Positions 188-24,726 of a DNA stretch of 60,154 nucleotides are shown here, piece by piece; the first letter of the stretch is position 1, and each line of letters opens with the position of its first letter. Origin of the DNA: an uncultured Bacilli bacterium (GTDB lineage: Bacteria > Bacillota_I > Bacilli_A > RF39 > UBA660); the NCBI GenBank assembly GCA_944363915.1, contig CALVVR010000002.1:1-60154 (forward strand). Direction: 5' to 3'. The notes under the pieces were generated by a model, which saw only the letters and a list, made by a program, of their open reading frames with translations, was not told the origin of the DNA and did not search any database. The position numbers were made by a program, and so were the translations under genes.

Positions 188-1114
188 TTAAAAAATTATC
201 AAATATGCATAATAACAAATAAACAACAATACCATAATAACGCCTTCAAGCCTAGTAATTGTTCGCTCACTTCTACTTTGAAAATAAAACATAGCAGCGG
301 CTACAATGACAGCGATTAAATCAACATAATTAAACGCAGTACTATAAACAGAACCATAAATCAAAGTGGGAAGTCCCAAAACAATACATATATTAAATAT
401 ATTAGTACCAATGATATTTCCAACCGTCATATCAAACTCACCTTTTTTTGCTGAAGTTACTGTAATCATTAGCTCTGGTAGAGACGTTCCAATAACTATT
501 ACGATCATTGATATTAACTTAGTGGCTATATTTAATTTTTCAGATAAATATAAAGTAGAATTAACAATCAAATCACTAGAAAAAATAATAACTAAAATTG
601 ATAATATAGTTAAAATGATAGATTTAATTTTACTTACTTTAGCATATTCTTCATCAACTTTTCTAAACTTTTTTATCATCTTATATAAATATACACCAAA
701 TAAAACAAATAATAAAATTAATATACCAGCATCATATCTTGATAATACACCATCAGAAAATAAAATACAAAAAACGACTGTTGTTATAACTAAAAGAGGT
801 AATTCTTTACCAACTGTTACGGTTTTGACTTTGACTGGTTTAACAATACTAGCAAGTCCAATTATAAGTAAAATATTAACTACACAACTTCCAACTACAT
901 TGGCTAAAGTCAAATCATAATTATTAGAACCGATACTATTAAAGGAAATAGCTAATTCAGGTGCACAAGTACTAAATGAAGCAATAGTTAATGCAATAAC
1001 CATTTTAGGCACTTTAAAACTAGTGGCTAAATTAGAAGCACTATCAACAAATACATTTGAAGAAACGATAATTAAGATTAAACCTAAAATTAATAAACAT
1101 ATATTTAACAACAT
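188..1114 (-). CDS. Ca2+/Na+ antiporter family (CaCA, YrbG-like) membrane protein
   Basis: Polytopic membrane protein with two alpha-repeat motifs (ANVVGSCVVNILLIIGL and GNIIGTNIFNICIVLGL). ATG at 1114 follows AGGTGA; the ORF-track start at 1123 is a GTG inside the RBS. Confidence 0.8.
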   Translation of the reverse strand: MLLNICLLILGLILIIVSSNVFVDSASNLATSFKVPKMVIALTIASFSTCAPELAISFNSIGSNNYDLTLANVVGSCVVNILLIIGLASIVKPVKVKTVTVGKELPLLVITTVVFCILFSDGVLSRYDAGILILLFVLFGVYLYKMIKKFRKVDEEYAKVSKIKSIILTILSILVIIFSSDLIVNSTLYLSEKLNIATKLISMIVIVIGTSLPELMITVTSAKKGEFDMTVGNIIGTNIFNICIVLGLPTLIYGSVYSTAFNYVDLIAVIVAAAMFYFQSRSERTITRLEGVIMVLLFICYYAYLIIF

Positions 1115-1152
1115 AGCTATCACCTATTTTTATTATACCATAAAAAAGAGGT

Positions 1153-2796
1153 TTAAATCATTTTAAATCTCTTTTCAATTTTTTCTTTTCCTAATAATTT
1201 CATAATTTCATATAAATCTGGTGTCATCGCTTTTGTTGTTAAAGCAACTCTTAAAACATTACTAATATCGGCAACATTTCCTTTATATTGTGAAGGATTT
1301 TCTTTATATTTTTTCATATCAGAAGCATAACCTAACTCATCACAAACTTCTTTAATTTTATTAAACCAAGTATCTTTATCATCATTAATGTTATATTTAT
1401 TTAAATAAATATTTAATATTTTTCTTATTTCATCTTTATCAGTAATATTTTGCCATTCATAATTTAAATTATTAAATAATTCGTCATACATATACCAAAT
1501 ATAAGATTTAATACTACTATAAGATTCAAAATCTTTTCTTGGCTTTTTCTGCTCTCTTTCAATATTTAAAATAGCAATGGTATAATCTTTATATTTTACC
1601 AATAAATTATAAAAATCTTTATCAAATTCTAAAGCCCAAGAAAGTGTAGCTTCATAAACATCGACCGCTTTTAAACGACTAATATAGTTTTTAGAAATAT
1701 TAAATAATTTATTAACATCAAATAAAGAACCACTTTTACTCATTTTAGCATAGTCGAATTTAAATTCATCAATTGATTTATCAGGATTAGCATCCATCCA
1801 ACCTTCAAAGTTCGAATTAGCAATTGTCATTAAATATAAGTTAACAGCCTCAACTGGTATACCTTTTTCATGATAATAACTGACAGCTGCTTCCGGATCT
1901 TTTCGTTTAGATAACTTTCTTCTAACTCCCTCGTCATCAATTTTCATCAACAGTCCTAAATGGCAAAATTTAGGAATTTCAAAACCAAATTTATTAAATA
2001 ATTCAATATGTAAAGGGGTTGAAGGCAACCACTCCTCGCCTCTTGAAATATGCGTTGTATGCATTAGATGATCATCAATAACATGAGCAAAATGATATAC
2101 TGGTACCCCATCACTTTTAATCAAAACATGATCGATATCATTTTCTGGATATTCAATTCTTCCTCTAACTAAATCATTAATTAATACTCTTTTATTAAAA
2201 TCTCCTGTTGATTTTAAACGAAGAACAAATTTTTCACAATTTTGAATTCTTTTGGCTTTTTCTTCATTAGAAACAAAACGATATTTAGCATACTTACCAT
2301 AATAACCAACTCTTTGTTTCTGCGCTTCTTGTAATGATCTAATTTCATCTAATTCTTCTTCACTACAAAAGCAAGGATAAGCATAATCATTTTCAACTAA
2401 CCATTTAGCAAATGTATGATATATTTCGATTCTTTTACTTTGAATGTAAGGACCATAGTTACCTATTTCTTCAGTTTCACTTAATGCACCTTCATCAATT
2501 TTAATATTAAAAGATTTCAAATCATTAATAATTCCTTCAATACCATTTTCGACTGTTCTTTTACCATCAGTATCTTCAATTCTTAAATAAAAAACTCCAT
2601 TTGTGTCTTTAGTAGCTTTTCTAGAAACAAAAGCGGCTAGTAAACTTCCCATATGAACAAATCCCGTTGGACTTGGTGCGAATCTAGTAACAATCGCTTT
2701 TTCATCTAAATCTCTTTTAGGATACATTTTTTCATAATCTTCAATTGTTTTCGAAACATCTGGATACATTATATCAGCAAGTTCTTTATTAGTCAT
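1153..2796 (-). CDS. gltX: Glutamate--tRNA ligase
   Basis: RFAPSPTGFVHMGS (HIGH-type) and KLSKRK (KMSKS-type) class I motifs. ATG at 2796 is preceded by AAGGAG. Confidence 0.9.
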   Translation of the reverse strand: MTNKELADIMYPDVSKTIEDYEKMYPKRDLDEKAIVTRFAPSPTGFVHMGSLLAAFVSRKATKDTNGVFYLRIEDTDGKRTVENGIEGIINDLKSFNIKIDEGALSETEEIGNYGPYIQSKRIEIYHTFAKWLVENDYAYPCFCSEEELDEIRSLQEAQKQRVGYYGKYAKYRFVSNEEKAKRIQNCEKFVLRLKSTGDFNKRVLINDLVRGRIEYPENDIDHVLIKSDGVPVYHFAHVIDDHLMHTTHISRGEEWLPSTPLHIELFNKFGFEIPKFCHLGLLMKIDDEGVRRKLSKRKDPEAAVSYYHEKGIPVEAVNLYLMTIANSNFEGWMDANPDKSIDEFKFDYAKMSKSGSLFDVNKLFNISKNYISRLKAVDVYEATLSWALEFDKDFYNLLVKYKDYTIAILNIEREQKKPRKDFESYSSIKSYIWYMYDELFNNLNYEWQNITDKDEIRKILNIYLNKYNINDDKDTWFNKIKEVCDELGYASDMKKYKENPSQYKGNVADISNVLRVALTTKAMTPDLYEIMKLLGKEKIEKRFKMI

Positions 2797-2848
2797 TATT
2801 ATCACTCCTTCAAGTATTATATCATAAAAAAAAGTATATTTAATACTT

Positions 2849-3058
2849 TTACATATATTTTGTCATTGATTTCATCATTTGATTAACTTGCTTTTGACTT
2901 GGTGTTCTCCCCATTTGCGTCATCATTGCTTTAATCATTTGTTCATTAATTGGTGGATTTTTCTTAATTTGTTTTTGAATTAAATGACGTGCTACAAAAA
3001 AACCAATTATTCCACCAACAACTAAACCAATTAATAAATATAATAAATTCCATAACAT
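2849..3058 (-). CDS. yneF: UPF0154 / YneF-family small membrane protein
   Basis: One N-terminal TM helix plus a conserved basic tail ([34 protein letters not shown]). Sits beside tkt-sirA as in B. subtilis. ATG at 3058 after AAGGAG. Confidence 0.75.
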
Positions 3059-3140
3059 TATTATCAACTCCTTAATATATTTTACTATTTTTTTCTTAAT
3101 TTTTCAATATTTTCTTTTAAAACTATAATTGAATATTTTA

Positions 3141-3533
3141 CTATACACAAATTAAATTCTCTTTTTTATTTAACCAAAAATAGTCATTATTGACAAAATC
3201 ACAAACAAAAAAACAGCTACTATAATTACTAAAATCATTGATAATTTTAGAATCGTATTTACATCTTATTATTATTCTTGTATGTTTTAATTCAACAAAT
3301 GATTTATCAATATAAAAAGTACGTTCGTTATCTAAATGATATTTTCTATTTAAATAATATTTTAAATTAAAAGTATTTATTCTTTCACATAACTGACTAT
3401 ATAAAGAAATTCCATAGTTAAAATTTTCTTTCATGCTATATAATTTTTTTAATATATCAAATAAAAATAAAGGATTTTTTTGATAATATTCATAATATTC
3501 TTTTTTTATAACAAAAAGATTATATTCTCGCAT
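3141..3533 (-). CDS. sirA: SirA-like protein (sporulation inhibitor of replication, YneE family)
   Basis: Lies between tkt and yneF exactly as B. subtilis sirA does. The N-terminal Y.L..IK.E..Y pattern and the C-terminal F..CDF...DYFWLN.KEN..V resemble my recollection of SirA. Not verified by search. Confidence 0.5.
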   Translation of the reverse strand: MREYNLFVIKKEYYEYYQKNPLFLFDILKKLYSMKENFNYGISLYSQLCERINTFNLKYYLNRKYHLDNERTFYIDKSFVELKHTRIIIRCKYDSKIINDFSNYSSCFFVCDFVNNDYFWLNKKENLICV

Positions 3534-3581
3534 TAGTATCACCTATTACAATTATATAATCTTTAATTTGCAAAAATTGTC

Positions 3582-5510
3582 TTATTTTAAGAGTTTGATA
3601 ATTTTTTTTAAAATTTGATCGTAACTAAATTCCATTTCATTAGCCACTTCTTCTTTAGTACCGCTATACCCAAATTTATCTAAAGTTATCAAATATTTAT
3701 CATTATAAACAAATCCTTCCCAACCTTGTTTACTACCTGCTTCAATAACAATTACTCGGTAACCTTTCGGTAAAATTTCTTCTTGGTATTCTTTACTTTG
3801 TTTTAAAAATAATTCACGATTGGGCATACTTATAACTCTAATGTCTAGTTTATACATTTCGTATAAAGTATTAGCTATTTTAATACTTAACTCTACTTCA
3901 CTACCAGTACTAATAATTATAGCGTGTAAATTATCTTCTTTTCTAACAATATATCCACCATAACTTACTGAATGACGATCTGTTTTGTCTAATAAACTAA
4001 CTTCATTTCTTGATAATACTAAACAACTTGGTTTTTTATTATTAATAATATATTCCCAACAACCAGTTATCTCTTTAGCATCAGCAGGTCTAAACACAGC
4101 TAAGTTAGGAATACTTCTTAGAGAAGCTAATTGCTCAATTGGTTGATGAGTTGGGCCATCTTGACCAATATTAATTGAATCATGAGTAAAAATATAAATA
4201 ACTGGTAAATTCATTAATGCACTCATTCTAATTGCTGGTTTTAAATAATCAGAAAAAACTAAGAAAGTTGAACCAAAAGCATAAAAATTATTCAAAGCTA
4301 AACCATTTAAAATTGCTCCCATTGCATGTTCGCGAACACCAAAATTAATATTATTTCCTACAAATTTATTTAAAGTATTAGGTAAAACAGCTTTGGTTGA
4401 AGATCCTAAATCTGCACTTCCACCGATAAAATTAGGAATTATTTTGGCTATTTCTTGCATTATTTTACCATTACTTACTCTTAATGATTCTTTTAAACTA
4501 TAATCAAAAAGCAAATTTCCTAAATCGATTCGAATATCTTCTTTTTGATAATTAAATTCATTAACTTGTTTATTAAATGGTTCATATTTTTTTAAACTTC
4601 TTTCAGAAATTTGTTTAATAAAATTTTTTCTAGCTTCTTCATTAACATAAAATTCCTCTGGTTCAATCTTTAATTTTAGTTTTAATTTTGTAATATCGTC
4701 TTTATCTAAAGGTGAGCCATGAACTTTATTAGTATTCTCATAAATAGAACCTTCACCAATAATGGTTTTTATTTGAATAAGTGTTGGTTTATTACTTTTT
4801 TTAGCTTCTTCAATAGCCTTATCAATACTAGATATAATCGTTCCATCTTTTACTTGAATTGTATTCCAATTTAAAGCTTCAAAACGTTCAATAATATTAT
4901 CATCAAAAACGCCATCAGTTCTGCCATCTAAACTGACATTATTGGAATCGTATAAAACGATTAAATTATTAAGTTTTAAACTACCTGCTAAAGAGGTGGC
5001 CTCATAACTAATTCCTTCCATTAAATCGCCATCGCCACATAAAACATAAACATTATAATCAAATAAACTCTGTTCTTTTCCTAACTTACTTTTTTTAGGA
5101 ATTTCGTACTGTTTGTTTAGTATTTTACCAGCTAAAGCCATTCCTACTGCTGAAGCAATACCTTGTCCCAAAGGCCCTGTCGACATATCAACACCATCAG
5201 TAACACCATATTCAGGATGTCCAGGTGTTTTAGAATGAATATGCCTAAATTGCTTTAAATCCTCAATAGTCAAATTAAATCCAGCCATATACAAAGTAGC
5301 ATATAATAAAGCCGAACCATGCCCAGCCGACAAAACAAAACGGTCTCTATTTTCCCATAACGGATCATTAGGATTTACGTTCATATGTTTAGCATAAAGC
5401 GTATATATAATTGAAGCAGCACCTAAAACAATGCCCGGATGGCCACTTCCCGCTTTATCGATCATATCAATTCCTAAACTTTTAATATTATTAACTATTT
5501 CTCGGTCCAT
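3582..5510 (-). CDS. tkt: Transketolase
   Basis: GSGHPG, GDGDLMEG (TPP-binding) and THDSI..G.DGPTHQP motifs. ATG at 5510 is preceded by GAGGTG; the ORF-track extension to 5570 has no RBS. Confidence 0.95.
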   Translation of the reverse strand: MDREIVNNIKSLGIDMIDKAGSGHPGIVLGAASIIYTLYAKHMNVNPNDPLWENRDRFVLSAGHGSALLYATLYMAGFNLTIEDLKQFRHIHSKTPGHPEYGVTDGVDMSTGPLGQGIASAVGMALAGKILNKQYEIPKKSKLGKEQSLFDYNVYVLCGDGDLMEGISYEATSLAGSLKLNNLIVLYDSNNVSLDGRTDGVFDDNIIERFEALNWNTIQVKDGTIISSIDKAIEEAKKSNKPTLIQIKTIIGEGSIYENTNKVHGSPLDKDDITKLKLKLKIEPEEFYVNEEARKNFIKQISERSLKKYEPFNKQVNEFNYQKEDIRIDLGNLLFDYSLKESLRVSNGKIMQEIAKIIPNFIGGSADLGSSTKAVLPNTLNKFVGNNINFGVREHAMGAILNGLALNNFYAFGSTFLVFSDYLKPAIRMSALMNLPVIYIFTHDSINIGQDGPTHQPIEQLASLRSIPNLAVFRPADAKEITGCWEYIINNKKPSCLVLSRNEVSLLDKTDRHSVSYGGYIVRKEDNLHAIIISTGSEVELSIKIANTLYEMYKLDIRVISMPNRELFLKQSKEYQEEILPKGYRVIVIEAGSKQGWEGFVYNDKYLITLDKFGYSGTKEEVANEMEFSYDQILKKIIKLLK

Positions 5511-5554
5511 TATTATCACCTCTTTTATTTTTTTCATTATATCATATTTTATAC

Positions 5555-5738
5555 AAAAAAAAAAGTCCAAGAATACGGGGCCCTTAACGATAAAACCTAG
5601 TCTCTACCAGGTGGGCATCACATCATCAACTTTAGGATTCTCAAAATTAATTGAGCGTTCAACACCATCGATGAATTAGATTCCCAATATTCGTTAATTA
5701 GTCGGTTTTTCTAAACGAGCTTATCGCTATTCTTAGAC
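5555..5738 (-). ncRNA. Stand-alone ~175-nt rod-shaped RNA, 6S RNA-like
   Basis: Extended -10 TGATATAAT at 5753-5745 places +1 at G5738. The 5' GUCUAAGAAUA pairs with the 3' UAUUCUUGGAC, followed by a U10 tract (5564-5555). Internal helices are UCAUCGAU/GUUGAUGA, GGG/CCC and an apical hairpin CUCAA-UUAAUU-UUGAG. A large asymmetric internal bubble lies between the closing and apical stems. No coding potential. Confidence 0.6.
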
Positions 5739-5836
5739 ATTTATATTATATCATATTTTTAAATAAATATACTGTTTATAATTAATATTTTCACACTTTC
5801 CCAAAATGTTAATTATTTGTTTTATAAACATAATTG

Positions 5837-6649
5837 TTAATAATTTGTTGGTTTATTAAGCCAAAACAATAGTTTACATAATGTTTTTCCTCTAGTTTCA
5901 TTATGTTTTTTTACTTTTTCTAATCCAGAAGAGCATAAATGACTATCTTTAGATAACGAAGGAGTTACTTTAATCACGCCACTAAATTTATCTTTTACTT
6001 CTTTATAAATTTTAATAAATTCTAACATTTCTTCTTCTGTTAACATTAATTCTTTATCTTTTTCCTGAGGTACAAAGTTCAAAACACTAATGTTTTTAAC
6101 GCCACACATTTCTGATATTTCAACTATTTCTTTAAATTTTTTATAATTAGTTTTTAAAGGAACAAAATGAACATCAATATCTAATCCAAATAAGCTAGCT
6201 TTTAACATTGAATCAGCCACACAATTAAATTGATTTTTAAACTCTTCTGAATAATTATCAACTTCAAATTCTTGAAGTTTAAAAACAATTTTATCTAATC
6301 CCACTTCTTTTAACAAAAGCAAATCCTTTTTATCAATTCCCGAAAATGTATAATTATCATATGTTTCATCAATATCATTTTTTTTAATTACCACACTAGT
6401 GAATAAAATTACTTTAATATTTCTTTCTTTACAATAACTTATCATTTCAAAAATATTAGGATGTAATAGTGGTTCGCCACCAGATAAAGATATTTCTTTT
6501 ATTTTACCATCGGATAACAAATGGTCAATCGTTTTTTTAAACAGATTCAAATCAACCATTTTAGTTTTATCATTTGAAGAATATGGCAAGGAAAAAACAC
6601 AATCATTAGAAAAAGAATTTATTATTTCAAAGCATAAATCTTTAATCAT
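5837..6649 (-). CDS. Radical-SAM-like protein lacking the CX3CX2C cluster motif
   Basis: Retains SLSGGEPLLH (GGE SAM motif) and TIM-barrel-like periodicity. The EITN.C...C..C position reads EIINSFSNDCVFS, so only one of three Cys is kept. ATGA overlap with the upstream PP-loop gene. Confidence 0.6.
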   Translation of the reverse strand: MIKDLCFEIINSFSNDCVFSLPYSSNDKTKMVDLNLFKKTIDHLLSDGKIKEISLSGGEPLLHPNIFEMISYCKERNIKVILFTSVVIKKNDIDETYDNYTFSGIDKKDLLLLKEVGLDKIVFKLQEFEVDNYSEEFKNQFNCVADSMLKASLFGLDIDVHFVPLKTNYKKFKEIVEISEMCGVKNISVLNFVPQEKDKELMLTEEEMLEFIKIYKEVKDKFSGVIKVTPSLSKDSHLCSSGLEKVKKHNETRGKTLCKLLFWLNKPTNY

Positions 6650-11407: not shown

Positions 11408-11527
11408 AATAACACCACCTTATTACATTTTAATTTTATCAAAAATTTAAATATTTTACAATATCTAAAACAACAAACATTATTAAACAGTTGTAAACAA
11501 CTTAATAAAAAAAGGACTAAAAACCCA

Positions 11528-12046
11528 ATGTTATTAACTTAAGAGTCAGAAGGACGAGAAACATACAATTCTTGTCTTATTCTATTTGATTAGATAAATT
11601 ATTACGAGTTAAAACTATAAAAATTGTATATTTGTATTAGAAAATTTTCTTATAATTAAAATGACTTTTAGTTATGGAATATTTATTTTTTTTACTGTGA
11701 TTATGTATTTTAGAATCTTCTTCATCAATAATTCAAACATCTCGTCTTGATTATTTCTATCTTCTTCAATGATAATTAAGATAAGTGTTTTTTAACAAAT
11801 CCTACTGCCATATTCATATTTATTTTCATTTCGTTTTTGTATCTAGTTTGATCTATTTCTTTTTGAACATCATTAGCAAAAGCTCTTATTATGTTAAATG
11901 CTAACATTTGTGAATTGGACTTATGTCAAGTTTTTATCCTTGTTACAAAATACTTACTATTACTACCACCTTTTTATTTACCTTAATCGTATCAAAAAAG
12001 ACAGATTTTTTTTAAATCCATCTTTTATTTCTTAAGTTAATAACAT
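11528..12046. mobile_element. Degenerate element bounded by 17-bp perfect inverted repeats (IS/MITE-like remnant)
   Basis: ATGTTATTAACTTAAGA at 11528-11544 is the exact reverse complement of 12030-12046. The ~485-bp interior has only broken minus-strand frames (for example MLAFNIIRAFANDVQKEIDQTRYKNEMK.., then a shifted LILIIIEEDRNNQDEMFELLMKKIL..). No intact transposase and no obvious target-site duplication. Confidence 0.35.
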
Positions 12047-12240
12047 CGCTTTCTTAACTTGTTCTTTTCATACATTTTTTTATTAAAACTATTTTCAAAG
12101 ATCATTTTTTCTACCTTTTTTGATAGATTTTATATCAAAATTTTCATCTTATTATCGGTTTTGTCTCATGTAACTAGTTTTCCATAAAACTTTTACACTA
12201 TCTTAATACATATTATAATTTCTTATTATTTAGCAAATTA

Positions 12241-12741
12241 TTACAAATCAAATTTGTAAATATTTTCTATAATGTTCAATCCACCAACATTCCCATCTTC
12301 ACTGTCGATTATTTTTCCACCTAATGCCGTGTAAAAATTTTCAGATGGATTTCCTTTTAAACATCTAACTATTATATTTTTATATCCCATATTTTTTAAC
12401 AAATCAAAACATTCTGTAATTAATTCTTTACCAATACCTTTTCTTTGATTTTCTTTTTCTATATATATTGAATAAACTTCACCCATATCTACATAATCAT
12501 TTCCACGTCCTTTACCATAGCAAGCAAATCCCAATATGTTATTGTCTTCTTCATAAACAATATAATGATATTCATTATCTTTTTCTATAGCTTCTTTTAT
12601 ATTATTATTTCTTTGTTCAAAATTTTTTTCTTGATTTATAAATATTTTTTCAGGAAAAAACTCACTATAGGTTGTCTTCCATGAATTTATATGTATTCTA
12701 GTTATTTTTTTTGAATCATTAACTTTTGCTTTTCTAATCAT
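12241..12741 (-). CDS. GNAT family N-acetyltransferase
   Basis: Motif A QRKGIGKELI and typical GNAT length. AGGAGG RBS overlaps the stop codon of the upstream amidohydrolase gene. Confidence 0.85.
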   Translation of the reverse strand: MIRKAKVNDSKKITRIHINSWKTTYSEFFPEKIFINQEKNFEQRNNNIKEAIEKDNEYHYIVYEEDNNILGFACYGKGRGNDYVDMGEVYSIYIEKENQRKGIGKELITECFDLLKNMGYKNIIVRCLKGNPSENFYTALGGKIIDSEDGNVGGLNIIENIYKFDL

Positions 12742-12749
12742 TTTTCCTC

Positions 12750-13727
12750 CTATTTTCCAAACAAATAATCTATATTATTATCTGTTGTTATTTTTTTATA
12801 TACGTTTATAGGTAATCTTTGAAATACCTTTACATTTTCTCCATAAATATTACTTAATTCTTTATCTATATTTGATTCAAGATATCCACAATAACTCCAT
12901 GGATAATCTGTACCAAATAATACTTTATTTGAAAAATTATTGCAGAAGAACATCACAAATTCATGAATATTATTTATACTATTTTTTATAAAATAATCAT
13001 CATTTTGTTTTTTTAATAGTTCGTATAGTTTAATTATAGGAGATAAATCAAACCATGTATTTTTTAAATCATTAATTTCTGTTAAAAAACTTTCATCTAA
13101 TCTAGCAACGTGTGCAATACAAAATCTAACATTTTTTAATTCTTTTACTAACGAAAGACATGATTTACCAGAACTATATTTATCACTTGCCGAATGAATC
13201 ATTATTGGTAAATTTTCCTTTTCTAAAAAAGATTTTAATTTATCATCATACAATATTGTACTAATATTTTTTCTATCAGTAGTAGGGTTTATCTTAAAGC
13301 CATAAATATTATATTTTTCTTTCAGTTTTAAATATGTTTCAATTTGTTCATCAATTTTAGAGTATAAACTAAGCATTATAAATGGCAATATTTGGCCATT
13401 ACCAAATATAAGAGTTTCATTTAATAATCTTTGATTTTCAAAAAAATATGGATGTTTTTCATATGATTCAATAACTTTCCTAATATCTTTATCTATATTA
13501 GGGCTACTATGTGTATCTATATTAGTAGGAACGGGAAATGTAACTGAATAATCTATGTTATTTTTTTGCATATTTGTTACTAAATCACTTATATTATTGC
13601 AATATGGAAATGCTCCAAGATAATAATTAGTGAAATTAATTCCTACCGCATGAGTATGTATATCTATACATTTATCACTTAGAATTTCTCTACTTATTTT
13701 GCTTTTCGTAATCAATACAACAATCAT
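12750..13727 (-). CDS. Amidohydrolase_2-type metal-dependent TIM-barrel hydrolase/decarboxylase family protein
   Basis: N-terminal DIHTH (HxH metal motif), internal HSA/AHV histidines and C-terminal GTDYPW, as in PF04909-like proteins. Start is uncertain; the ORF overlaps the upstream gene by 38 nt. Confidence 0.75.
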   Translation of the reverse strand: MIVVLITKSKISREILSDKCIDIHTHAVGINFTNYYLGAFPYCNNISDLVTNMQKNNIDYSVTFPVPTNIDTHSSPNIDKDIRKVIESYEKHPYFFENQRLLNETLIFGNGQILPFIMLSLYSKIDEQIETYLKLKEKYNIYGFKINPTTDRKNISTILYDDKLKSFLEKENLPIMIHSASDKYSSGKSCLSLVKELKNVRFCIAHVARLDESFLTEINDLKNTWFDLSPIIKLYELLKKQNDDYFIKNSINNIHEFVMFFCNNFSNKVLFGTDYPWSYCGYLESNIDKELSNIYGENVKVFQRLPINVYKKITTDNNIDYLFGK

Positions 13728-14649
13728 CCCCTTCTAAATAATTACTAGTTGCACTATATGCTCTAGCTCTGCAACCACCACATATATATTTTTTTTTACA
13801 CTCACCACATTTGCCCATTAGATTATCACGATTATTTAAAGCTATTATAATTTTATTTGTTAAAATTTCTTCTAAACTTTTTTCCTGCAAATTTCCAAGT
13901 AGAATTCTCATTCTAACACAAGGATAAACATTAAAATTTGAATCTATACAAATTGCTTTTGTTCCTGCACTACAACCCGTTATTAAATTATTATTAAAAT
14001 ATTTCAACTCATTATTACAAAAACTTATAGGATCACTACAATCTATATGTTCTTGAATTATATAACTCTTTAATCTACACATTTGTTCAGGCGTTATCAT
14101 CGATAAGTCTTTACCACGTCCACATGGAGTGACAATTTCCAAAGCAAATTTTACATTTAATTCTTTTGCAAGAGAATTAACTTCTTCTATTTCATCGTAA
14201 TTTATTGTACTAACTGCCATCATTATAGAAAAATTGCTATTTACTTTTTGTATTCTTTTTATAAATTTTAAACTTTTTTCATAAGTATTTAATCCTCTTA
14301 TTTTTTCATGTGTTTCTTTTTTTCCATCTATACTTACTTGAATTAAATCAAACATTTTAAAAATATCAACATCTTTTACATTATCTAATGTACCATTAGT
14401 TGTTAAAGCTATAAAAGGAATATTATATTTTTTTAATATAGAAACATATTGTTTTATTTTATCTCCTATCATCAAAGGTTCTCCACCTGAAATCACTATT
14501 TTTGTGCAACCTTGATTATATAATTCTTCAACTACCTTTTCAAATTTATTTAAGTTCATTGTTATCTTTTCTTTAAAAAGTCCATAACAATGTTTACACT
14601 TCAAATTACAAAAGTTTGTTATTTCTAAAATCGCTAATTCTATTCTCAT
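13690..14649 (-). CDS. Radical SAM/SPASM domain peptide-modifying enzyme (rSAM-3)
   Basis: EITNFCNLKCKHC (CX3CX2C), ISGGEPL, and a C-terminal SPASM region CSAG..C...YPC and CGECKKKYICGGC. ATGA overlap with the PqqD gene. Confidence 0.9.
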   Translation of the reverse strand: MRIELAILEITNFCNLKCKHCYGLFKEKITMNLNKFEKVVEELYNQGCTKIVISGGEPLMIGDKIKQYVSILKKYNIPFIALTTNGTLDNVKDVDIFKMFDLIQVSIDGKKETHEKIRGLNTYEKSLKFIKRIQKVNSNFSIMMAVSTINYDEIEEVNSLAKELNVKFALEIVTPCGRGKDLSMITPEQMCRLKSYIIQEHIDCSDPISFCNNELKYFNNNLITGCSAGTKAICIDSNFNVYPCVRMRILLGNLQEKSLEEILTNKIIIALNNRDNLMGKCGECKKKYICGGCRARAYSATSNYLEGDDCCIDYEKQNK

Positions 14650-14915
14650 ATTAGCTCAATAATTTCTTGCGATAACATTTCATTTATAAATGCTACTACA
14701 ACTTTCTCAATATCTTCTCTAGCATTTTGGCAATAATCTTCTAATGCTAAAATTGAATCAATGATCTCATTAACTGTATTATCACCAGTACACTTTTCCC
14801 ATAAAAATGTTTCCATTTCTTCAAGAACAATTATGCAATGTTCACCTTGTATTATAGTGTTAACATCTTCTTTTCTTTGAATTAATTTTACGTTGGGAAA
14901 TCTATGATAACTCAT
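14646..14915 (-). CDS. PqqD-family peptide chaperone (RiPP recognition element)
   Basis: About 89 aa with a PqqD-like pattern (..LEEMETFLWEKCTG.NTVNEIIDSI...Y......ED.....FI.E.L...I). ATGA overlaps at both ends. An alternative ATG at 14954 lies inside the upstream gene. Confidence 0.8.
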   Translation of the reverse strand: MSYHRFPNVKLIQRKEDVNTIIQGEHCIIVLEEMETFLWEKCTGDNTVNEIIDSILALEDYCQNAREDIEKVVVAFINEMLSQEIIELI

Positions 14916-15898
14916 TTGCTTTGGCTTTTTATCCAACAATACGGATCTTTGCATAAATAATCTCCTTTCAATGTGTACGAAAGACCTCTACACCCTCCAG
15001 CACAATCCTTCTTATATTTACATATTTTACATTCTTCTTTGAGTTTATTTACATCATTAATTTCATCAAAAAATTTATTTTGCCATATTTCTTCTATTGT
15101 TTCATTATAAATATTTCCAACTGTTTTATTTAATAAAGCGCAAGGAATTGCATCACCATTAGCTTTAATTACTAAACATAATTTGCCAACCAAACATGGA
15201 CATACGGCTTTTTCTGATATAGCCATTAATGGTGAATCAATCGCTATTTCAACGCCAGTCTCTTCACTGATTTTTTTGTGATTTTCTATCAAATATTTCC
15301 ATTCGTCAACAGATAACATTTCTAAATTTGACTGTTTTCCTCTTCCTATTTTTACATAAGGCATCAACCTTAGTTTGTTTACCCTAAATGACTTGGCATC
15401 ATTTATTATTTGGTCTAAATATTTAATATTTTTTTTGTGTAATACAGTAACTAAATTTGTAATAATCCCTCTATTTACTGCTTTTATGATATTATTTTTT
15501 ACTATATCATATTTATTAGTTCCTCTTATAAGAGAATAAATATCTTCATTTGGTCCGTCATAACTAATCCTTAAAGTTGCCTCATTTTCTTTTAATAACT
15601 CTAATATTCTTTCATTCAGTAAATAACCATTTGAAGCAACACTAATGTTCATATTACTTTCATAAGCATATTTTATAATATCTTCAAAATCTTTATGTAA
15701 TAAAGGTTCTCCTCCACTAAAATCTAAACATACAATCCCCTTACTTTGCATATAATCAATTATTTCTTTTATTTTTGTATATGGCATTTCTGTCATATTT
15801 TTAAGTTCTGATTCATTTATGCAATGTACACATGCGAAATTACATTTGTTAGTAATTTCTACACTTATTTGTGATGGATATTTGAATCTATAAATCAT
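14912..15898 (-). CDS. Radical SAM/SPASM domain peptide-modifying enzyme (rSAM-2)
   Basis: EITNKCNFACVHC, FSGGEPLLH, and SPASM motifs CPCLVGKLCLVIKANGDAIPC and CKICKYKKDCAGGC. ATG at 15898. Confidence 0.9.
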   Translation of the reverse strand: MIYRFKYPSQISVEITNKCNFACVHCINESELKNMTEMPYTKIKEIIDYMQSKGIVCLDFSGGEPLLHKDFEDIIKYAYESNMNISVASNGYLLNERILELLKENEATLRISYDGPNEDIYSLIRGTNKYDIVKNNIIKAVNRGIITNLVTVLHKKNIKYLDQIINDAKSFRVNKLRLMPYVKIGRGKQSNLEMLSVDEWKYLIENHKKISEETGVEIAIDSPLMAISEKAVCPCLVGKLCLVIKANGDAIPCALLNKTVGNIYNETIEEIWQNKFFDEINDVNKLKEECKICKYKKDCAGGCRGLSYTLKGDYLCKDPYCWIKSQSK

Positions 15899-16852
15899 TA
15901 AAACACCCACTTTCCACTTCTTTATAACTGCCTTTTTGTAAATAAGATTTCCCTCTACAACCACCATTGCATTTTTCCCTTTTGCTGCATAATTTACATT
16001 GCGAATTAAATACTCTAGGTTCGTGAAATTCTTTTAATATTGTAGAGTTATTCCATATATCATACAATGTGTTATATTTTACATTTCCACACTTTACTTT
16101 GTTCTCACCTAAAAACATAACACAGGGGTAAACACCATAGTCAGCACCAATTACACAGGAGGTTATACCAGCCATACAATTAACATTTTCTACTTTTTCA
16201 TTTTGCTCTCCAATTATTAATTTATTTCCTAATTTTTTGGTCATATATGATAGTGTTTCTTTGTATTTTATATCATCTATATATAAATTTTGATTTTGCA
16301 AAGAATTACCAAGAGGTTTTACTTTCATCAATTTAGCTTTTAAGTCGTTTTCAATTATAAAATCTATAAATTCATCTACACATTTTAAATTTAATGGCGT
16401 TAACAAATAACCGACGTAAACATCAATATTTAAGCTTTTGCATAGTTTTATGCAGTTGATAGTTTTAGAAAATGTTTTCTTACTATTTTTATGATAACTA
16501 TCAATTTCATCATTCATGCCTGTTAATGTAATAAAAATGCAATTTATATTATTTTTTTTAACTTTTTAGCAATTTTTTCATCTATTAATGAACCATTGGT
16601 AGTTAAATTCCATGTTATATTATTTTCTGCGAGTGATTTTATTATTGAACTAAAGTCTTTATGTAATAACGGTTCTCCACCAGAAATATTAACACTAAAT
16701 ATATTATTTGTCCTTAATTCATTAATTAAAGATTCAATTACATTTATACTTAGTTCATCACGTTCTTTAATTAATCCGTTTCTACAATATAAACAATTAT
16801 AATTACATTTGTACGTCAAATCTATTTCTATATTTAATGGAAATTTAAACAT
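15888..16852 (-). pseudogene. Radical SAM/SPASM enzyme (rSAM-1) split by a 1-nt frameshift in an A8 tract
   Basis: The N-terminal fragment (16852-16544) has YKCNYNCLYC and SGGEPLLH. The C-terminal fragment (16517-15888) has SPASM motifs CMAGITSCVIGADYGVYPC and CKLCSKREKCNGGC. One extra A in the A8 run (16552-16559) fuses them in frame (..KKLKKNNINCIFITLTGMNDEID..). AGGAGG RBS at 16859-16864. Confidence 0.8.
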
Positions 16853-16897
16853 ATCTTGCCTCCTCAAAACTTGAATCTACTAAGTGATGAAGGAATC

Positions 16898-16972
16898 CTA
16901 CCCTCCACCGTTAACATTCATTGAACATGCTGCATAAGTAATAACTTTTAAATTCAATTTTAGTTTTTTCAT
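16898..16972 (-). CDS. Candidate 24-aa precursor peptide MKKLKLNLKVITYAACSMNVNGGG
   Basis: Unannotated small ORF in the only gap of the operon. Its ATG overlaps the TGA of the upstream SPASM-only gene (ATGA), with GGAGGTG 4 nt upstream. Basic amphipathic N-terminal half and a Gly-rich C-terminus. TAG stop at 16898. Confidence 0.6.
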   Translation of the reverse strand: MKKLKLNLKVITYAACSMNVNGGG

Positions 16973-17823
16973 GTTACACCTCCTTTCATACCACAATATT
17001 TATTGCAATTTTTTGTTCTATGTATAGGACAACCACCAAAACACATATCAAATTTTTCACAAAAATTTTTTGGCATATAATCTTTATATAAATTATTAAA
17101 AATATCGTTTAGATTGTAATCTTTAATATTATATTTATAATTTGTTTTTTCTTTATAACAGAGTTTTCCATACCCTTCAACATCTATGCATAACAAACAT
17201 ATAAATCCCGGACAGATTCCTTGTAAATTTTCATATCTAATTGCTGCACATGGCATATCATATAACACCTTTAATGGAAAATTATTTTTTAACAAACTTA
17301 AGTTATTTGCTAATTCCCAATAATCTTTTACAATTATATTATTTTTTATATTTATATTAAAAATATAAGGCATTCTCTCGATTAATGGTTTTAACTTATA
17401 CTTAAAATCATCAATATTACTTATTTCATTAATAAAAATAATATCGTTACAATCTGTTTTAAAATTTTCATATAAACTATTAATATATTCTTCTTCTATT
17501 TTATTTATAACAAATCTGAATTGATTTATTTTATCTTTCATACTAAGTAAATTATTATTTTTACTCATTCCTTTTATTGTTAAAGAAATGCTTTTATTCA
17601 TTTTTTTTAATATAGTAACTACTTGATCTAACAAATCCACATTTATATTTTTACTATTTATAACAATAGATATCATTTTTGTTTCAGCATCTATTTTATT
17701 AGTTATTTCAAATATTGTTTTCTTTGAAACGTGTTTTGTTTTATTATTAAACTCGATTTCCAGCATATATAGTTTCCTATACTTCAAAACAAGAAATTTA
17801 TCTTGTAAACAAATATCTGACAA
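16969..17823 (-). CDS. SPASM-domain protein lacking the radical SAM cluster and GGE motifs (rSAM pseudoenzyme)
   Basis: The N-terminus aligns to the rSAM paralogs but reads EITNKIDAETKMI where they have EITN.C...C..C. The C-terminus is Cys-rich (PCAA..GICPGFICLLC..GKLC, then FCEKFDMCFGGCPIH..NCNKYCG). TTG start at 17823 lies 6 nt after AGGTGA; an alternative ATG is 19 codons downstream. Confidence 0.75.
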   Translation of the reverse strand: MSDICLQDKFLVLKYRKLYMLEIEFNNKTKHVSKKTIFEITNKIDAETKMISIVINSKNINVDLLDQVVTILKKMNKSISLTIKGMSKNNNLLSMKDKINQFRFVINKIEEEYINSLYENFKTDCNDIIFINEISNIDDFKYKLKPLIERMPYIFNINIKNNIIVKDYWELANNLSLLKNNFPLKVLYDMPCAAIRYENLQGICPGFICLLCIDVEGYGKLCYKEKTNYKYNIKDYNLNDIFNNLYKDYMPKNFCEKFDMCFGGCPIHRTKNCNKYCGMKGGVT

Positions 17824-18214
17824 TTTTGATCACCTACTTTTTTGTTATTAAATCAATTTCTAATATTTCCTACTAAATTCTTTTATCTTTCTTTTAATTC
17901 AACTGGACTTTATCTATCTCTTGGTCCATATGACAAATCATCAGTAACATTCTAATTCTATATTTATTTTGTAATACATAATCTACTGGGACATATTCAT
18001 CAAAACACCTTCAATTATTATCATATTTATTATTTAGGGCAGAATAGAAACATAATAATATTTGTAAAGTATTGATTTCTAGCATTTGTTTTTTTACATG
18101 GTTAATAATTAATTCACCAATTAGTTTTATCATACTAAAAAATTTAAACAATATTTTACTACTTAACAAAAATGTCAATAGCTTCATAATTAAAAATTAA
18201 TATCTAAAATACAT

Positions 18215-22322: not shown

Positions 22323-24074
22323 CTATTCTAAAATAGCCTTTATTCTTCTAACCCCTGCACTACTAGCTTCTTCTTTAATGATTTTAAATTTACCTAATTC
22401 TTTAGTATTTTTAACATGTGGACCACCACATAATTCTTTAGAAATATCGCCAATACTATAAACAGTTACAATATCAGGATATTTTTCAATGAACATACAT
22501 TCAGCTCCAGATTTTAATGCTTCTTCCTTACTCATTTCAGTTACTGTTACGTCTAGTCCTTCATTAATCCATTTATTAACTAGATCCTCTGTTTTTTGCT
22601 TTTCTTCATCAGTTAATTTATGATCACATGAAAAGTCAAAACGCATTCTTTCGCTAGTAATATTACTTCCTTTTTGATGGACATTTTTATCAACTACAAT
22701 TTTTAAAGCTGCGTTTAACAAATGCGTAGCAGTGTGGTATTTTATTTCTTTTTCAGAGTCACCAGCTAAGCCACCTTTAAATTTACCACTAGAAGACGTT
22801 CTTGATAATTCTTGATGAGCTTTAAACTTTTCTTTAAAACCTTCAACATCGACGTTAATTCCTTGTTCACTAGCTAATTCAACAGTTAACTCAATTGGGA
22901 AACCATATGTATCATATAATTTGAAAGCTAAATCTTTATTTAATGTTTTAGTATCTAAATGACTAGTTATTTTTTCAAATTCTTTTAAACCTTTAGCTAA
23001 TGTTTTATTAAACTTAATTTTTTCATTAGTTAATCCTTCTAAAATAGCTTCTTTATTTTTAGTTAATTCTGGATAATATTTTGCATATTCTTCAATTATC
23101 ATATTAGCAATAATGACTTCCCAATTACTATTTTCATCAATCTCTAATTTTTTAGCATGTCTAATTGCTCTTCTAATTAATCTTCTTAAAATATATCCTT
23201 GATCAGTATTAGATGGTTTAATACCTGCTTCATCACCTAAGATAAATACAGCTGTTCTGATATGATCAGCAATAATACGCATACTAGTTGGATTTTCTTC
23301 ATAACTATATTTAGATAATTCTTCTATTTTTTTAATAATATTGATCCATACACTTGATAAATAATTATCATCAACGCCTTCTAAAACAGCAACTACTCTT
23401 TCATATCCCATACCTGTATCAACGTTTTTTTGAGGAAGTTCTGTTATATTTCCATTACTATCTTTATAAAATTCCATAAAAACATTGTTCCATATTTCAA
23501 CCCATCTATCATCTTTGGGATCAAATTTTTGAGGTATTTCGTCATTACTCCTAAAATAAAATATTTCTGTATCTGGACCACATGGACCAGTTTCCCCAGC
23601 AATCCAAAAATTATCTTCTTTTCCTAAATAAGCGATTCTATCTTCACTTATTCCTAAACTTTTCCAAGTTTTGGCTGAAACATCATCACGAGGTATTTTC
23701 CCTTCACCAGCAAAAACAGTTACAGCTAATCTTTCTAAAGGAATATTTAATACTTTGGTTAAAAATTCAAAACTATAACCAATACTTTCTTTTTTAAAAT
23801 AATCACCTAATGACCAATTACCTAACATTTCAAAAAAAGTATGATGTGTTTTATCGCCAATACTATCTAAATCATTAGTTCTAATACATTTTTGATAATC
23901 GACCAATCTTTTTCCATAAGGATGAGGTTGCCCCATTAAATATGGAATCAAAGGTTGCATACCAGCAGTATTAAATAAAACGGAAGGATCATTTTCCGGT
24001 ACAACTGGCGCTGACGGAATTTGCTTATGTCCTTTACTTACAAAAAAATCTATATATAAATCTTTAAGATTCAT
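22323..24074 (-). CDS. alaS: Alanine--tRNA ligase, short form ending after the editing domain
   Basis: N-terminal class II AlaRS motifs (F..KGH...PS..VVP.NDP..LF.NAGM) and editing-domain HTATHLL and CGGPHV. Terminates at ..GVRRIKAILE with no C-Ala domain. ATG at 24074 after GAGGGTGA. Confidence 0.9.
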   Translation of the reverse strand: MNLKDLYIDFFVSKGHKQIPSAPVVPENDPSVLFNTAGMQPLIPYLMGQPHPYGKRLVDYQKCIRTNDLDSIGDKTHHTFFEMLGNWSLGDYFKKESIGYSFEFLTKVLNIPLERLAVTVFAGEGKIPRDDVSAKTWKSLGISEDRIAYLGKEDNFWIAGETGPCGPDTEIFYFRSNDEIPQKFDPKDDRWVEIWNNVFMEFYKDSNGNITELPQKNVDTGMGYERVVAVLEGVDDNYLSSVWINIIKKIEELSKYSYEENPTSMRIIADHIRTAVFILGDEAGIKPSNTDQGYILRRLIRRAIRHAKKLEIDENSNWEVIIANMIIEEYAKYYPELTKNKEAILEGLTNEKIKFNKTLAKGLKEFEKITSHLDTKTLNKDLAFKLYDTYGFPIELTVELASEQGINVDVEGFKEKFKAHQELSRTSSSGKFKGGLAGDSEKEIKYHTATHLLNAALKIVVDKNVHQKGSNITSERMRFDFSCDHKLTDEEKQKTEDLVNKWINEGLDVTVTEMSKEEALKSGAECMFIEKYPDIVTVYSIGDISKELCGGPHVKNTKELGKFKIIKEEASSAGVRRIKAILE

Positions 24075-24726
24075 TCTTATCACCCTCTATTACTTCAATA
24101 AATTTATCAACAACTTCATCAATTGTCATATTAGTTGAATCGATATAAACTTGTTCATCAGTTCTTTTTAAAGCTCCAACTTCTTTATGCATATCGTTAT
24201 AATCACGAGATTTGATATTTTCATAAACTTCATCATAAGTCATATCAATACCTTTTTCTTTATTTTGTTTAATTCTTCTTGCAACTCTTTCTTCTAATGA
24301 AGCGTCCAAATAAAATTTGTATTTAGCATTGGGAAAAACAACAGTTGTTATATCTCTACCTTCCATGACAACATCATAATCACTAGCCATTTTTCTTTGT
24401 AAATCAACCATATTTTCTCTTACTTCGACAATGCTAGAAATTGGTGAAACAATATTAGTTACTTCTTTACTTCTAATTTCATCAGTAACATCTTCACCGT
24501 TTAAATAAACTTTATTATCTAAATCAATTTTAATATTAATTTCACTAGATAATTTTATTATTTCTTCTTTATCATCTAAAGATAAATTGTTACGTAAACA
24601 AGCTAAAGCCACACAACGATATGTTGCTCCTGTATCAATATTTACTAAATTACATTTTTTCGATAATATACTAGCGATAGTTCCTTTACCACTACCAGCT
24701 GGCCCATCAATAGCTACTACTCTCAT
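24064..24726 (-). CDS. cmk: Cytidylate kinase
   Basis: IAIDGPAGSGKGT P-loop and ..IDTGA.YR motif. Confidence 0.92.
   Translation of the reverse strand: MRVVAIDGPAGSGKGTIASILSKKCNLVNIDTGATYRCVALACLRNNLSLDDKEEIIKLSSEINIKIDLDNKVYLNGEDVTDEIRSKEVTNIVSPISSIVEVRENMVDLQRKMASDYDVVMEGRDITTVVFPNAKYKFYLDASLEERVARRIKQNKEKGIDMTYDEVYENIKSRDYNDMHKEVGALKRTDEQVYIDSTNMTIDEVVDKFIEVIEGDKNES

Follow-up and report, generated by a model that had tools for sequence, protein, structure and literature searches.

The 60,154-nucleotide (nt) stretch of DNA analysed here, referred to throughout as the window, comprises positions 1 to 60,154 of contig CALVVR010000002.1 (assembly GCA_944363915.1) from an uncultured Bacilli bacterium. 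Between positions 12,241 and 17,823 its minus strand carries a compact cluster of eight genes, which most likely constitutes an unnamed, self-contained peptide-maturation operon built from radical S-adenosylmethionine (rSAM) enzymes with SPASM domains and a PqqD protein, of the type that yields peptides that are ribosomally synthesized and then modified after translation (RiPPs). The cluster displays the generic features of rSAM/SPASM RiPP-type systems, namely rSAM enzymes with a CX3CX2C motif and a SPASM domain, a PqqD-family RiPP recognition element (RRE), and a precursor gene that is conserved together with them. A RiPP or peptide-cofactor system had been proposed for this locus in a first-pass annotation, and that reading holds: the conserved precursor, the PqqD protein and the rSAM/SPASM enzymes were all found, and neither a characterised non-peptide family that would accommodate the rSAM proteins nor a homologous cluster lacking the small peptide gene was encountered. 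Genes were taken from the open reading frame (ORF) listing and by direct reading of the sequence, whose G+C content is ~26% throughout the window, and the features are as follows.

16969-17823, minus strand: degenerate rSAM/SPASM paralogue (the SPASM-only protein), 284 aa, with a TTG start and an AGGTGA ribosome-binding site
16898-16972, minus strand: gene for the 24-aa precursor peptide MKKLKLNLKVITYAACSMNVNGGG, its start overlapping the upstream stop codon (ATGA)
16886-16909, minus strand: possible stem-loop across the precursor stop codon, a tentative RNAfold prediction
15888-16852, minus strand: rSAM/SPASM-1, frameshifted here into ORFs 16544-16867 and 15888-16517
16552-16559, minus strand: A8 homopolymer interrupting the reading frame of rSAM/SPASM-1, which the A9 allele leaves open
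14912-15898, minus strand: rSAM/SPASM-2, 328 aa, with PF04055, PF13353 and PF13186
14646-14954, minus strand: discrete PqqD-family protein, the presumed RRE, with PF05402 and an alternative start at 14915 (ATGA overlap)
13690-14649, minus strand: rSAM/SPASM-3, 319 aa, with PF04055, PF13186 and PF13353
12750-13727, minus strand: amidohydrolase-superfamily enzyme, 325 aa, with PF04909
12241-12741, minus strand: GNAT N-acetyltransferase, 166 aa, with PF00583
17917-17986, minus strand: decayed relA/spoT-like 3'-end fragment, recognised by blastn and translated alignment

Direct reading places ATGA junctions at 16969-16972, 14912-14915 and 14646-14649 and an 11-nt overlap, ATGATTTATAG, at 15888-15898, and the sequence TAGGAGG immediately 5' of the GNAT ATG combines a stop codon with a ribosome-binding site. 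The eight co-directional minus-strand genes with their overlaps and junctions lie exactly where the first-pass annotation had put them, and the order that it gave (SPASM-only protein, peptide, rSAM-1, rSAM-2, PqqD, rSAM-3, amidohydrolase, GNAT) is present as claimed. The profile searches that it had recommended recovered PF04055, PF13186, PF05402, PF04909 and PF00583 in the cluster proteins, each above the Pfam gathering score. For rSAM/SPASM-1 the domains and position were borne out and the single intact ORF was not, the gene being divided by the A8 frameshift into two ORFs, with PF04055 in the first and PF13186 in the second. The gene arrangement is not a product of chance, because the same order recurs in ~10 independent lineages. 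These lineages, whose loci are designated by L numbers, were collected from the contigs of SPASM-only relatives and by a back-translated peptide-pattern scan of three collections; they range from 24 to 41% G+C and include low-GC Bacillota-like contigs, a Tenericutes-labelled metagenome-assembled genome (MAG) and Bacteroidales MAGs. A core of SPASM-only protein, precursor, rSAM-1, rSAM-2, PqqD and rSAM-3 is found in all lineages wherever the contig covers it, with cross-lineage identities of 41-84% for the SPASM-only protein and 44-90% for rSAM-2. One match of the peptide pattern, in a marine metagenome (L024), was rejected as a chance occurrence in DNA without long ORFs and without rSAM genes.

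Can an ORF of 24 codons be taken for a gene? The comparison across lineages argues that it is a real gene under selection at the protein level. A small ORF is kept at the equivalent position beside the enzymes in 10 lineages (24-41% G+C), that is, in every lineage examined, and this was a point on which the first-pass annotation had staked its reading. A GGAGG-type ribosome-binding site lies 6-9 nt 5' of the precursor start in every case. The same-position homologues are MKKLKLHLKVITYAACSLNVNAGG, MKKLKLKVKVINYAACSMNVNAGN, (MN)VKKLTLKVKVITYAACSLNVSSGS and MKKLTLKVKVITYAACTINSNAGA, together with MKKLVLKLHVITYAACAINTMSGN, MKKLVLRVQIITYAACAINTINGFDDD and MKKLKLNLKVITYAACSMNVNSGG; one further lineage has the homologue MKKLILKVQVITYAACAVNVNAGS and a second tandem copy, MKQLILNVQIIKYAACAINVNSGDDDEPPGG, and a longer variant reads ...LNLKVNKFKYAGCTMNVNSGN. 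Across the ten sequences of the 24-mer type, 11 residues are invariant (K2, K3, L4, L6, I11, Y13, A14, A15, C16, N19 and G23), and 10 of these 11, all except Tyr13, are specified by 2-4 different synonymous codons. Selection on the peptide itself is indicated because synonymous codons vary at residues that do not. The precursor is conserved at least as strongly as the best-conserved enzyme, such that between the window and L027 the peptides are identical at 23 of 24 positions, compared with 75% identity for rSAM-2 and 64% for the amidohydrolase, and the precursor pattern occurs once in the window against zero occurrences expected by chance.

The precursor of the window has a single Cys, has no Glu and ends in NGGG. 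The C-terminal tail that follows the conserved core is variable and sometimes extended (DDDEPPGG, FDDD). Two tandem precursor genes occupy positions 1276-1601 of L014, the second of which encodes 31 aa with an acidic, proline-rich C-terminal extension (...NSGDDDEPPGG), and the precursor of L023 likewise ends in ...NGFDDD; these extensions suggest a removable follower segment. The predicted hairpin at the precursor stop codon (9 bp, z = -2.0 by RNAfold) is weak in the window, and a hairpin spans or follows the precursor stop in five of seven lineages tested (window, L012, L027, L013 and L016), being strong in L013, where a T-run accompanies it, and in L016, and at least comparable to that of the window in L012 and L027; none of this kind follows the precursor in L009 or L006. 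The peptide also bears a superficial resemblance to a lipoprotein signal peptide, with an MKK N-terminus followed by ...A-A-C. A lipobox takes the form [LVI][ASTVI][GAS]C behind an uncharged hydrophobic region, and under the lipobox rule (PROSITE PS51257) D, E, R and K are barred from the six residues that precede the lipobox. A lipoprotein reading was rejected, as K5, N7 and K9 occupy the would-be hydrophobic region and Tyr stands at position -3; a basic residue (K, R or H) is found at position 7 or 9 in all homologues, and the resemblance is probably coincidental.

The CX3CX2C motif and the SPASM cysteines are invariant in all three rSAMs across 8-9 lineages, and pairwise identity among the three is only 27-32%. 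All three start directly at the radical-SAM core with no fused recognition domain, and because each begins in this way a separate recognition element would be needed. A candidate for this role is the PqqD-family protein (PF05402 at 30.2 bits, the gathering score being 23.4), which is strongly conserved in nine lineages and found in every homologous cluster. Among solved structures, those closest in sequence include SuiB, PqqE, CteB and SkfB (E 1e-9 to 1e-14); for rSAM-3 the nearest are SkfB and CteB, and its match to the PqqE structure reaches only E 2.5e-5. For rSAM-2, scores like those of the peptide maturases are also reached by non-peptide rSAM enzymes, an archaeal lipid synthase and an anaerobic sulfatase maturase among them. 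In the NCBIfam scan of the cluster proteins no model was matched at its curated cutoff, and only generic Pfam domain models pass. The best match of rSAM-2 is GeoRSP_rSAM, aligned over its full length at 157.7 bits against a cutoff of 400; rSAM-3 at best reaches 135.8 with AhbD, whose cutoff is 500, and 135.3 with TIGR04053, whose cutoff is 395; and rSAM-1 scores 131 against 650 with WgkB, 119.5 against 265 with MftC and 106 against 381 with PqqE. Taken over the cluster rSAMs, scores are 106-109 for PqqE (cutoff 381.35), 76-120 for MftC (265), 135.8-137.4 for AhbD (500) and 116-133 for NirJ2 (500). Orthologues of rSAM-2 at 44% identity or more form ~22 clusters, all from metagenomes or MAGs.

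The appearance of AhbD and NirJ2 as the top NCBIfam matches of rSAM-3 raises the alternative that the rSAMs act on a non-peptide substrate such as a tetrapyrrole, with the small ORF being incidental or lipoprotein-like, and the MKK N-terminus and A-A-C (or A-G-C) lipobox resemblance of the peptide could be cited on the same side. However, the AhbD and NirJ2 matches of 116-136 bits lie far below the cutoff of 500 and peptide maturases score similarly, no tetrapyrrole genes lie nearby, every copy encodes a PqqD-family chaperone, the small ORF and the enzymes co-vary throughout the lineages, and the conserved basic residue at position 7 or 9 together with Tyr at -3 violates the lipobox rule. Membership of the heme and heme d1 rSAM family (AhbC, AhbD, NirJ) was not found, nor were tetrapyrrole genes in the contexts checked. 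The rSAMs stand outside every characterised non-peptide family, with all scores far below cutoffs, which was the other point on which the first-pass annotation had let its reading depend. A non-peptide substrate, the only alternative considered here that would exclude peptide maturation, is for these reasons extremely improbable.

The fourth member of the enzyme set, the SPASM-only protein, has no Pfam or NCBIfam match, even at E<=10 in NCBIfam. Its family profile nevertheless aligns end to end with the profiles of rSAM-1 and rSAM-3 (hhalign probability 95-97%), and in this alignment a deletion of ~15 residues falls exactly at the loop of the radical-SAM cluster (CX3CX2C), with the GGE motif also gone. 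Ten C-terminal Cys are invariant, and the Cys-rich domain at that end is kept. The label "SPASM-only pseudo-rSAM" given in the first pass is backed by the profile alignment and the ten invariant Cys, and the comparison supports a catalytically dead, degenerate rSAM/SPASM paralogue. In the AlphaFold model the N-terminal 170 residues alternate between β and α elements with a predicted local distance difference test (pLDDT) score of 80-94; the fold search returned generic TIM barrels, SuiB, biotin synthase and TsrM among them, none significant, and the Cys-rich domain is poorly modelled. An "LKYRKL" N-terminal motif in the homologues favours the long, TTG-started form of the protein. The family is small: 5.8 billion proteins yield only six clusters at 90% identity, and an exhaustive profile search of 1.84 billion representatives finds 22 relatives. 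One distant member (P0019) has an intact CX3CX2C, and another (P0015) aligns over its full length, weakly (E 0.0013), with the GeoRSP SPASM-domain model. The latter comes from a different cluster (L019, positions 908-6012 of JGI 3300043569), which encodes PqqD, an rSAM/SPASM enzyme, the SPASM-only protein P0015, a C39-like peptidase, a B12-rSAM and ThiF, and from which it may be that the pairing of an active with a dead SPASM protein is a wider theme.

The copy in the window is probably off or crippled, because its rSAM-1 carries the A8 frameshift allele. Adding one A to the A8 run restores a 321-aa rSAM/SPASM-1 that is identical to the intact allele of L002 and L005. Of five further assemblies of this species that were checked, L001, L003 and L004 have A8, as in the window, and L002 and L005, which come from different samples, have A9 and an intact gene. 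The gene is intact in other lineages, which lack a homopolymer at this site; that of L017 is broken by masked bases. The polymorphism could stem from on/off switching by slipped-strand events, from pseudogenisation in particular strains or from an error of assembly, and transcriptional slippage might partly rescue the A8 allele.

How would these components work together? The conserved gene that is tied to the enzymes would supply their substrate in the form of its 24-aa product. The PqqD protein would bind the Lys-rich N-terminal half, MKKLxLxVKVI, in which basic and hydrophobic residues alternate, as a β-strand in the manner of PqqD-PqqE and MftB-MftC, and would present the core T-Y-A-A-C-x-x-N-x-x-x-G in turn to the three RRE-less rSAM/SPASM enzymes, each of which would most likely install one radical-mediated modification. 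A thioether from the Cys sulfur to Cβ or Cα of the Asn, comparable to the products of NxxcB, PapB and the sactisynthases, would most plausibly join the invariant Cys16 and Asn19, which stand at i and i+3, and the invariant Tyr13 might be cross-linked through a C-C or C-O bond or be modified oxidatively. For the dead paralogue a role as scaffold, Fe-S partner or electron-transfer partner is probable, and the SPASM-only protein of GeoRSP might have a like role. Where present, the amidohydrolase would trim or release part of the modified peptide, for example the variable C-terminal tail, or alternatively might carry out a decarboxylation or a ring opening (as a lactonase), and the GNAT would then N-acetylate the freed amine as a finishing step or for self-protection.

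Several observations weigh against peptide maturation in this form. The residues proposed to be modified and the enzymes proposed to modify them were assigned from conservation alone. The lack of a protease, exporter or immunity gene near any copy is unusual for a secreted bioactive RiPP, and a peptide that varies so little from phylum to phylum resembles cofactor precursors (PqqA, MftA) more than it does antimicrobial RiPPs. The heme enzymes AhbD and NirJ2 as top matches of rSAM-3 make a non-peptide substrate for that enzyme a remote possibility, and the fold class predicted for the amidohydrolase includes decarboxylases, lactonases and amide hydrolases, so that its role would be ambiguous. 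Across ~10 contexts no protease, transporter or regulator is conserved beside the cluster; the first-pass annotation had already remarked that leader peptidase, exporter and immunity genes were missing, and none that is dedicated or obvious was seen in or beside any copy. A typical secreted bacteriocin is disfavoured by the near-invariance of the peptide and by the missing exporter and protease.

The two genes at the 3' end differ from the rest in their distribution. The window, L012, L006 and L027 have the two of them after the core, L009, L013 and L017 lack both, and L014 and L016 show the amidohydrolase without the GNAT, the contig of L014 ending there and that of L016 continuing with a HAD-like gene. 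The tailoring pair reported in the first pass is present in the window; as part of the cluster core it did not hold, being absent from three lineages, and the pair is an accessory module. The amidohydrolase matches PF04909 at 27.5 bits (gathering score 26.4), and its invariant motifs are read as the HxH / H / H / D metal-ligand set of the superfamily. Its Foldseek matches are LigI-like hydrolases, ACMSD, IDCase, TatD and dihydroorotase, an assignment at the level of the superfamily or PF04909 only, and a sequence search of the PDB gave no match and no PurAH-like protein. Seven orthologues are 59-96% identical, all metagenomic, and the contexts that were checked (L027/L028 via P0034, and L012) are the same cluster; the next relative is 31% identical and lies in an unrelated sugar-utilisation locus. 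The GNAT matches PF00583 at 56 bits, and its nearest named relatives are ArsN1 (ArsN1a/b), phosphinothricin acetyltransferase and YncA, at 38-40 bits against cutoffs of 170-210. These three enzymes act on small amino-acid-like compounds.

This module suggests a version of peptide maturation in which the end product is an excised, peptide-derived small molecule (an antimetabolite or signal), the rSAMs building a modified residue or a short cross-linked unit on the Y-A-A-C core, the amidohydrolase excising it and the GNAT acetylating its free amine, whether to complete the biosynthesis or to make the producer resistant to its own product. It overlaps with the operon as described above and differs in the end product alone. 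In its favour, the nearest relatives of the GNAT belong with acetyltransferases of amino-acid-like toxins (MccE, PAT and ArsN1 acetylate such compounds), the amidohydrolase and GNAT are present together or missing together in seven of the lineages just named, a diffusible product needs neither exporter nor protease, and an invariant core fits a defined product. On the other hand, in L009, L013 and L017 the core occurs with neither enzyme, which requires that its product be of use by itself, L016 has the HAD-like gene after the amidohydrolase instead of the GNAT, and the GNAT similarities are far under the family cutoffs. We regard this version as rather unlikely.

A second question posed by the near-invariant peptide is whether the product could be a new intracellular redox cofactor made from the Tyr/Cys core, similar to pyrroloquinoline quinone (PQQ) or mycofactocin. 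A 24-aa precursor that is nearly invariant across phyla and has the size of PqqA would suit such a product, as would a discrete PqqD protein serving RRE-less rSAM/SPASM enzymes in the manner of PqqD/PqqE and MftB/MftC, and a hydrolase in a cluster that has no exporter, leader protease or immunity gene. However, no candidate cofactor-dependent dehydrogenase co-occurs in ~10 contexts, matches to PqqE, PqqD and MftC are far below cutoffs and homologues of PqqB, PqqC, MftD and MftE are absent. The distribution is also difficult to reconcile with a cofactor that needs partner enzymes in its host, being extremely rare (22 relatives among 1.84 billion; 3 matches in 185,579 species genomes by the peptide-pattern scan), patchy and linked to mobile elements. 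The cluster is known from uncultured organisms only, and recorded sources are animal or human gut: L022 is a human-gut MAG labelled "uncultured Tenericutes UMGS610", L023 a yak-caecum Bacteroidales MAG, and L013 (= L021; NCBI JBGRPZ010000046.1) a 33% GC contig with a Por_Secre_tail gene in a Hyphomicrobiales-labelled MAG, a contig that is probably Bacteroidota-like and mis-binned, or its MAG mislabelled.

Mobile elements adjoin several copies. L012 is flanked by an integrase, Mob_Pre and a Rep-like AAA_25 protein; beside L027 lies a large serine recombinase accompanied by cargo genes for APH, GNAT and Fic. In the window, the fragment at 17917-17986, on the upstream side of the cluster, is 77% identical over 71 nt to L006-L008 by blastn (E 6e-9), and its translated pieces, which are frameshifted, align to residues 430-458 of the RelA/SpoT homologue of L022; because the relA/spoT-like gene stands intact immediately upstream of the cluster elsewhere (in both L022 and L006), the fragment is a scar of horizontal transfer. 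The best explanation of this pattern is that the operon is horizontally mobile cargo and not a housekeeping function. The rarity, the patchy cross-phylum spread and the mobile contexts argue against a housekeeping cofactor, a direction in which the patchy, mobile-element-linked distribution leans, and we think a PQQ-like cofactor improbable.

The same contexts could be taken to indicate an anti-phage or other conflict system, with the modified peptide, or a molecule derived from it, acting inside the cell. At positions 9586-20897 of L013 the six-gene core lies between an HSDR_N fragment and hsdM-hsdS-GmrSD-hsdR, a type I restriction-modification defence island; other copies are on integrative elements, and no exporter is present. 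In addition, an unrelated cassette at positions 2244-10509 of L029, an Indioceanicola profundi plasmid (NZ_CP030128.1), consists of genes for NTF2, rSAM, PqqD, rSAM and rSAM with a small ORF upstream and directly adjoins two TIR genes and a SIR2 gene; it is the best plasmid match to rSAM-2, for which a tblastn search of plasmids and phages gave nothing above 29% identity. However, the core lies in a defence island in one of ~10 contexts, the peptide pattern has no matches in viral contigs, and a location on mobile elements suits a bacteriocin-like function equally well. PADLOC-DB v2 returned only generic radical-SAM-core matches to pVip (viperin); the SPASM-only protein, PqqD, the amidohydrolase and the GNAT matched nothing in it. 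A role in conflict is very unlikely. The small-molecule, cofactor and defence alternatives are special cases within the peptide-maturation reading and not competitors of it.

Combining these elements, we tentatively envisage, as a scenario that is unlikely to hold in every part, that the Tyr-Ala-Ala-Cys...Asn core would be converted to a small molecule (cofactor, signal or antimetabolite, in the style of PQQ, mycofactocin or 3-thiaglutamate) by three radical reactions, excision by the amidohydrolase and N-acetylation by the GNAT, that the cassette moves between Bacillota-like and Bacteroidota gut bacteria, and that the A8/A9 tract may switch it on and off.

The cluster in the window sits between a hybrid histidine kinase gene and an ireB-ruvX-DUF1292-mltG block. 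In Firmicutes this block is normally preceded directly by alaS. In the window alaS lies upstream, past an AMP-binding ligase and the kinase, and positions 22323-24083 (minus strand) encode a short-form alanine-tRNA ligase of 586 aa (PRK01584, 815 bits). Neither neighbour was retained as a member of the system: the AMP-binding ligases of the window and L009 are 24% identical and differently positioned, and the hybrid histidine kinase is not conserved beside other copies. The 833-bp gap between the GNAT and ireB genes (11408-12240) has no ORF longer than ~45 aa and no match to other loci, and may be the degraded remains of the element that delivered the cluster. A 6S RNA gene is located at 5560-5742 on the minus strand (Rfam RF00013, 77 bits).

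New enzyme chemistry, peptide-derived cofactors and antibiotics have one of their main sources in the rSAM peptide maturases. Here three distinct rSAM/SPASM enzymes would be served by a single discrete recognition protein, and the role of the dead rSAM/SPASM paralogue, as scaffold or electron relay, bears also on the uncharacterised GeoRSP cassette. Were the product an excised small molecule or a cofactor, the very few such compounds known would gain a new member. Because no isolate carries the cluster and its hosts are uncultured, heterologous reconstitution is the sole route to the product, an experiment that the near-invariant peptide makes easier.

How does the cluster compare with known systems? 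It has no description in the curated family models, PADLOC, plasmid and phage records or literature searched, and every known-family membership test that was run came out negative with only generic Pfam domains passing, which agrees with the "unclassified" of the first-pass annotation. The uncharacterised GeoRSP cassette (TIGR04302, TIGR04303, TIGR04304) is similar in pairing a discrete PqqD and an rSAM/SPASM enzyme with a SPASM partner that lacks the radical-SAM cluster. However, the rSAM score is 157.7 against 400, the SPASM-only protein gives no match and TIGR04302 is not among the matches of the window PqqD; moreover, GeoRSP has one active rSAM where this cluster has three, and the 24-aa precursor and the amidohydrolase/GNAT pair are additional here. 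The PQQ pathway (PqqA/D/E) shares a conserved precursor of ~24 aa with an essential Tyr, a stand-alone PqqD and an RRE-less rSAM/SPASM enzyme. It differs in that PqqE scores 106-109 against 381.35 and PqqD 20.9 against 46, the cluster contains neither a PqqB nor a PqqC domain, the peptide here lacks the Glu-X3-Tyr motif, three rSAMs are present and the cluster is rare and mobile. Mycofactocin likewise has a precursor that is short and conserved, together with a PqqD-type chaperone, an rSAM/SPASM enzyme and a hydrolase that is not of a protease family, and its hydrolase, MftE, cleaves only after rSAM modification (PMC10885120). In contrast, MftC scores at most 119.5 against 265, the peptide here is without the C-terminal Gly-Val-Tyr, and homologues of MftD, MftE and MftF and the associated dehydrogenases are absent from this cluster.

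Other RiPP families resemble the cluster in single features. Like the radical thioether RiPPs (AlbA, SkfB, CteB, PapB, NxxcB), it combines rSAM/SPASM enzymes with an invariant Cys that has an invariant Asn three residues away, and NxxcB forms a Cys-Asn β-thioether in an N-x-x-C motif (PMC9389541). The maturases of these families score far lower than their cutoffs (PapB 81.5/340, AlbA 82/850, SkfB 68/300, StsB 99.6/625, SCIFF maturase 28.6/425), the peptide here has only one Cys in the reversed orientation (C-x-x-N) and a discrete recognition element serves the enzymes; the thioether itself is a proposal drawn from sequence. In bottromycin biosynthesis the amidohydrolase PurAH removes a follower peptide (PMC10885120), and the presence of a metal-dependent amidohydrolase-superfamily enzyme (PurAH/BotAH) in a RiPP cluster is a shared feature; the precursors here have a variable C-terminal tail. 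However, the fold matches here are of the LigI/ACMSD/IDCase type within PF04909 with no PurAH-like PDB match, and bottromycin depends on YcaO machinery in place of rSAM enzymes. Finally, the rad_SAM_trio/GDL-motif system (TIGR03913) and SynChlorMet (ScmD/E/F) are, like this cluster, uncharacterised systems with tandem rSAM/SPASM paralogues for one presumed peptide, and the SynChlorMet system has a PqqD relative. Scores against them are 67.6 compared with 591.75 for TIGR03913, 74-83 compared with 400 for ScmE/ScmF and 19.9 compared with 100 for ScmD, and the precursor motif differs. Set against all of these systems, the PqqD-dependent rSAM/SPASM logic of the cluster is already known, and what is new is its precursor family, with the invariant Y-A-A-C-x-x-N, and the unusual complement of enzymes that accompanies it.

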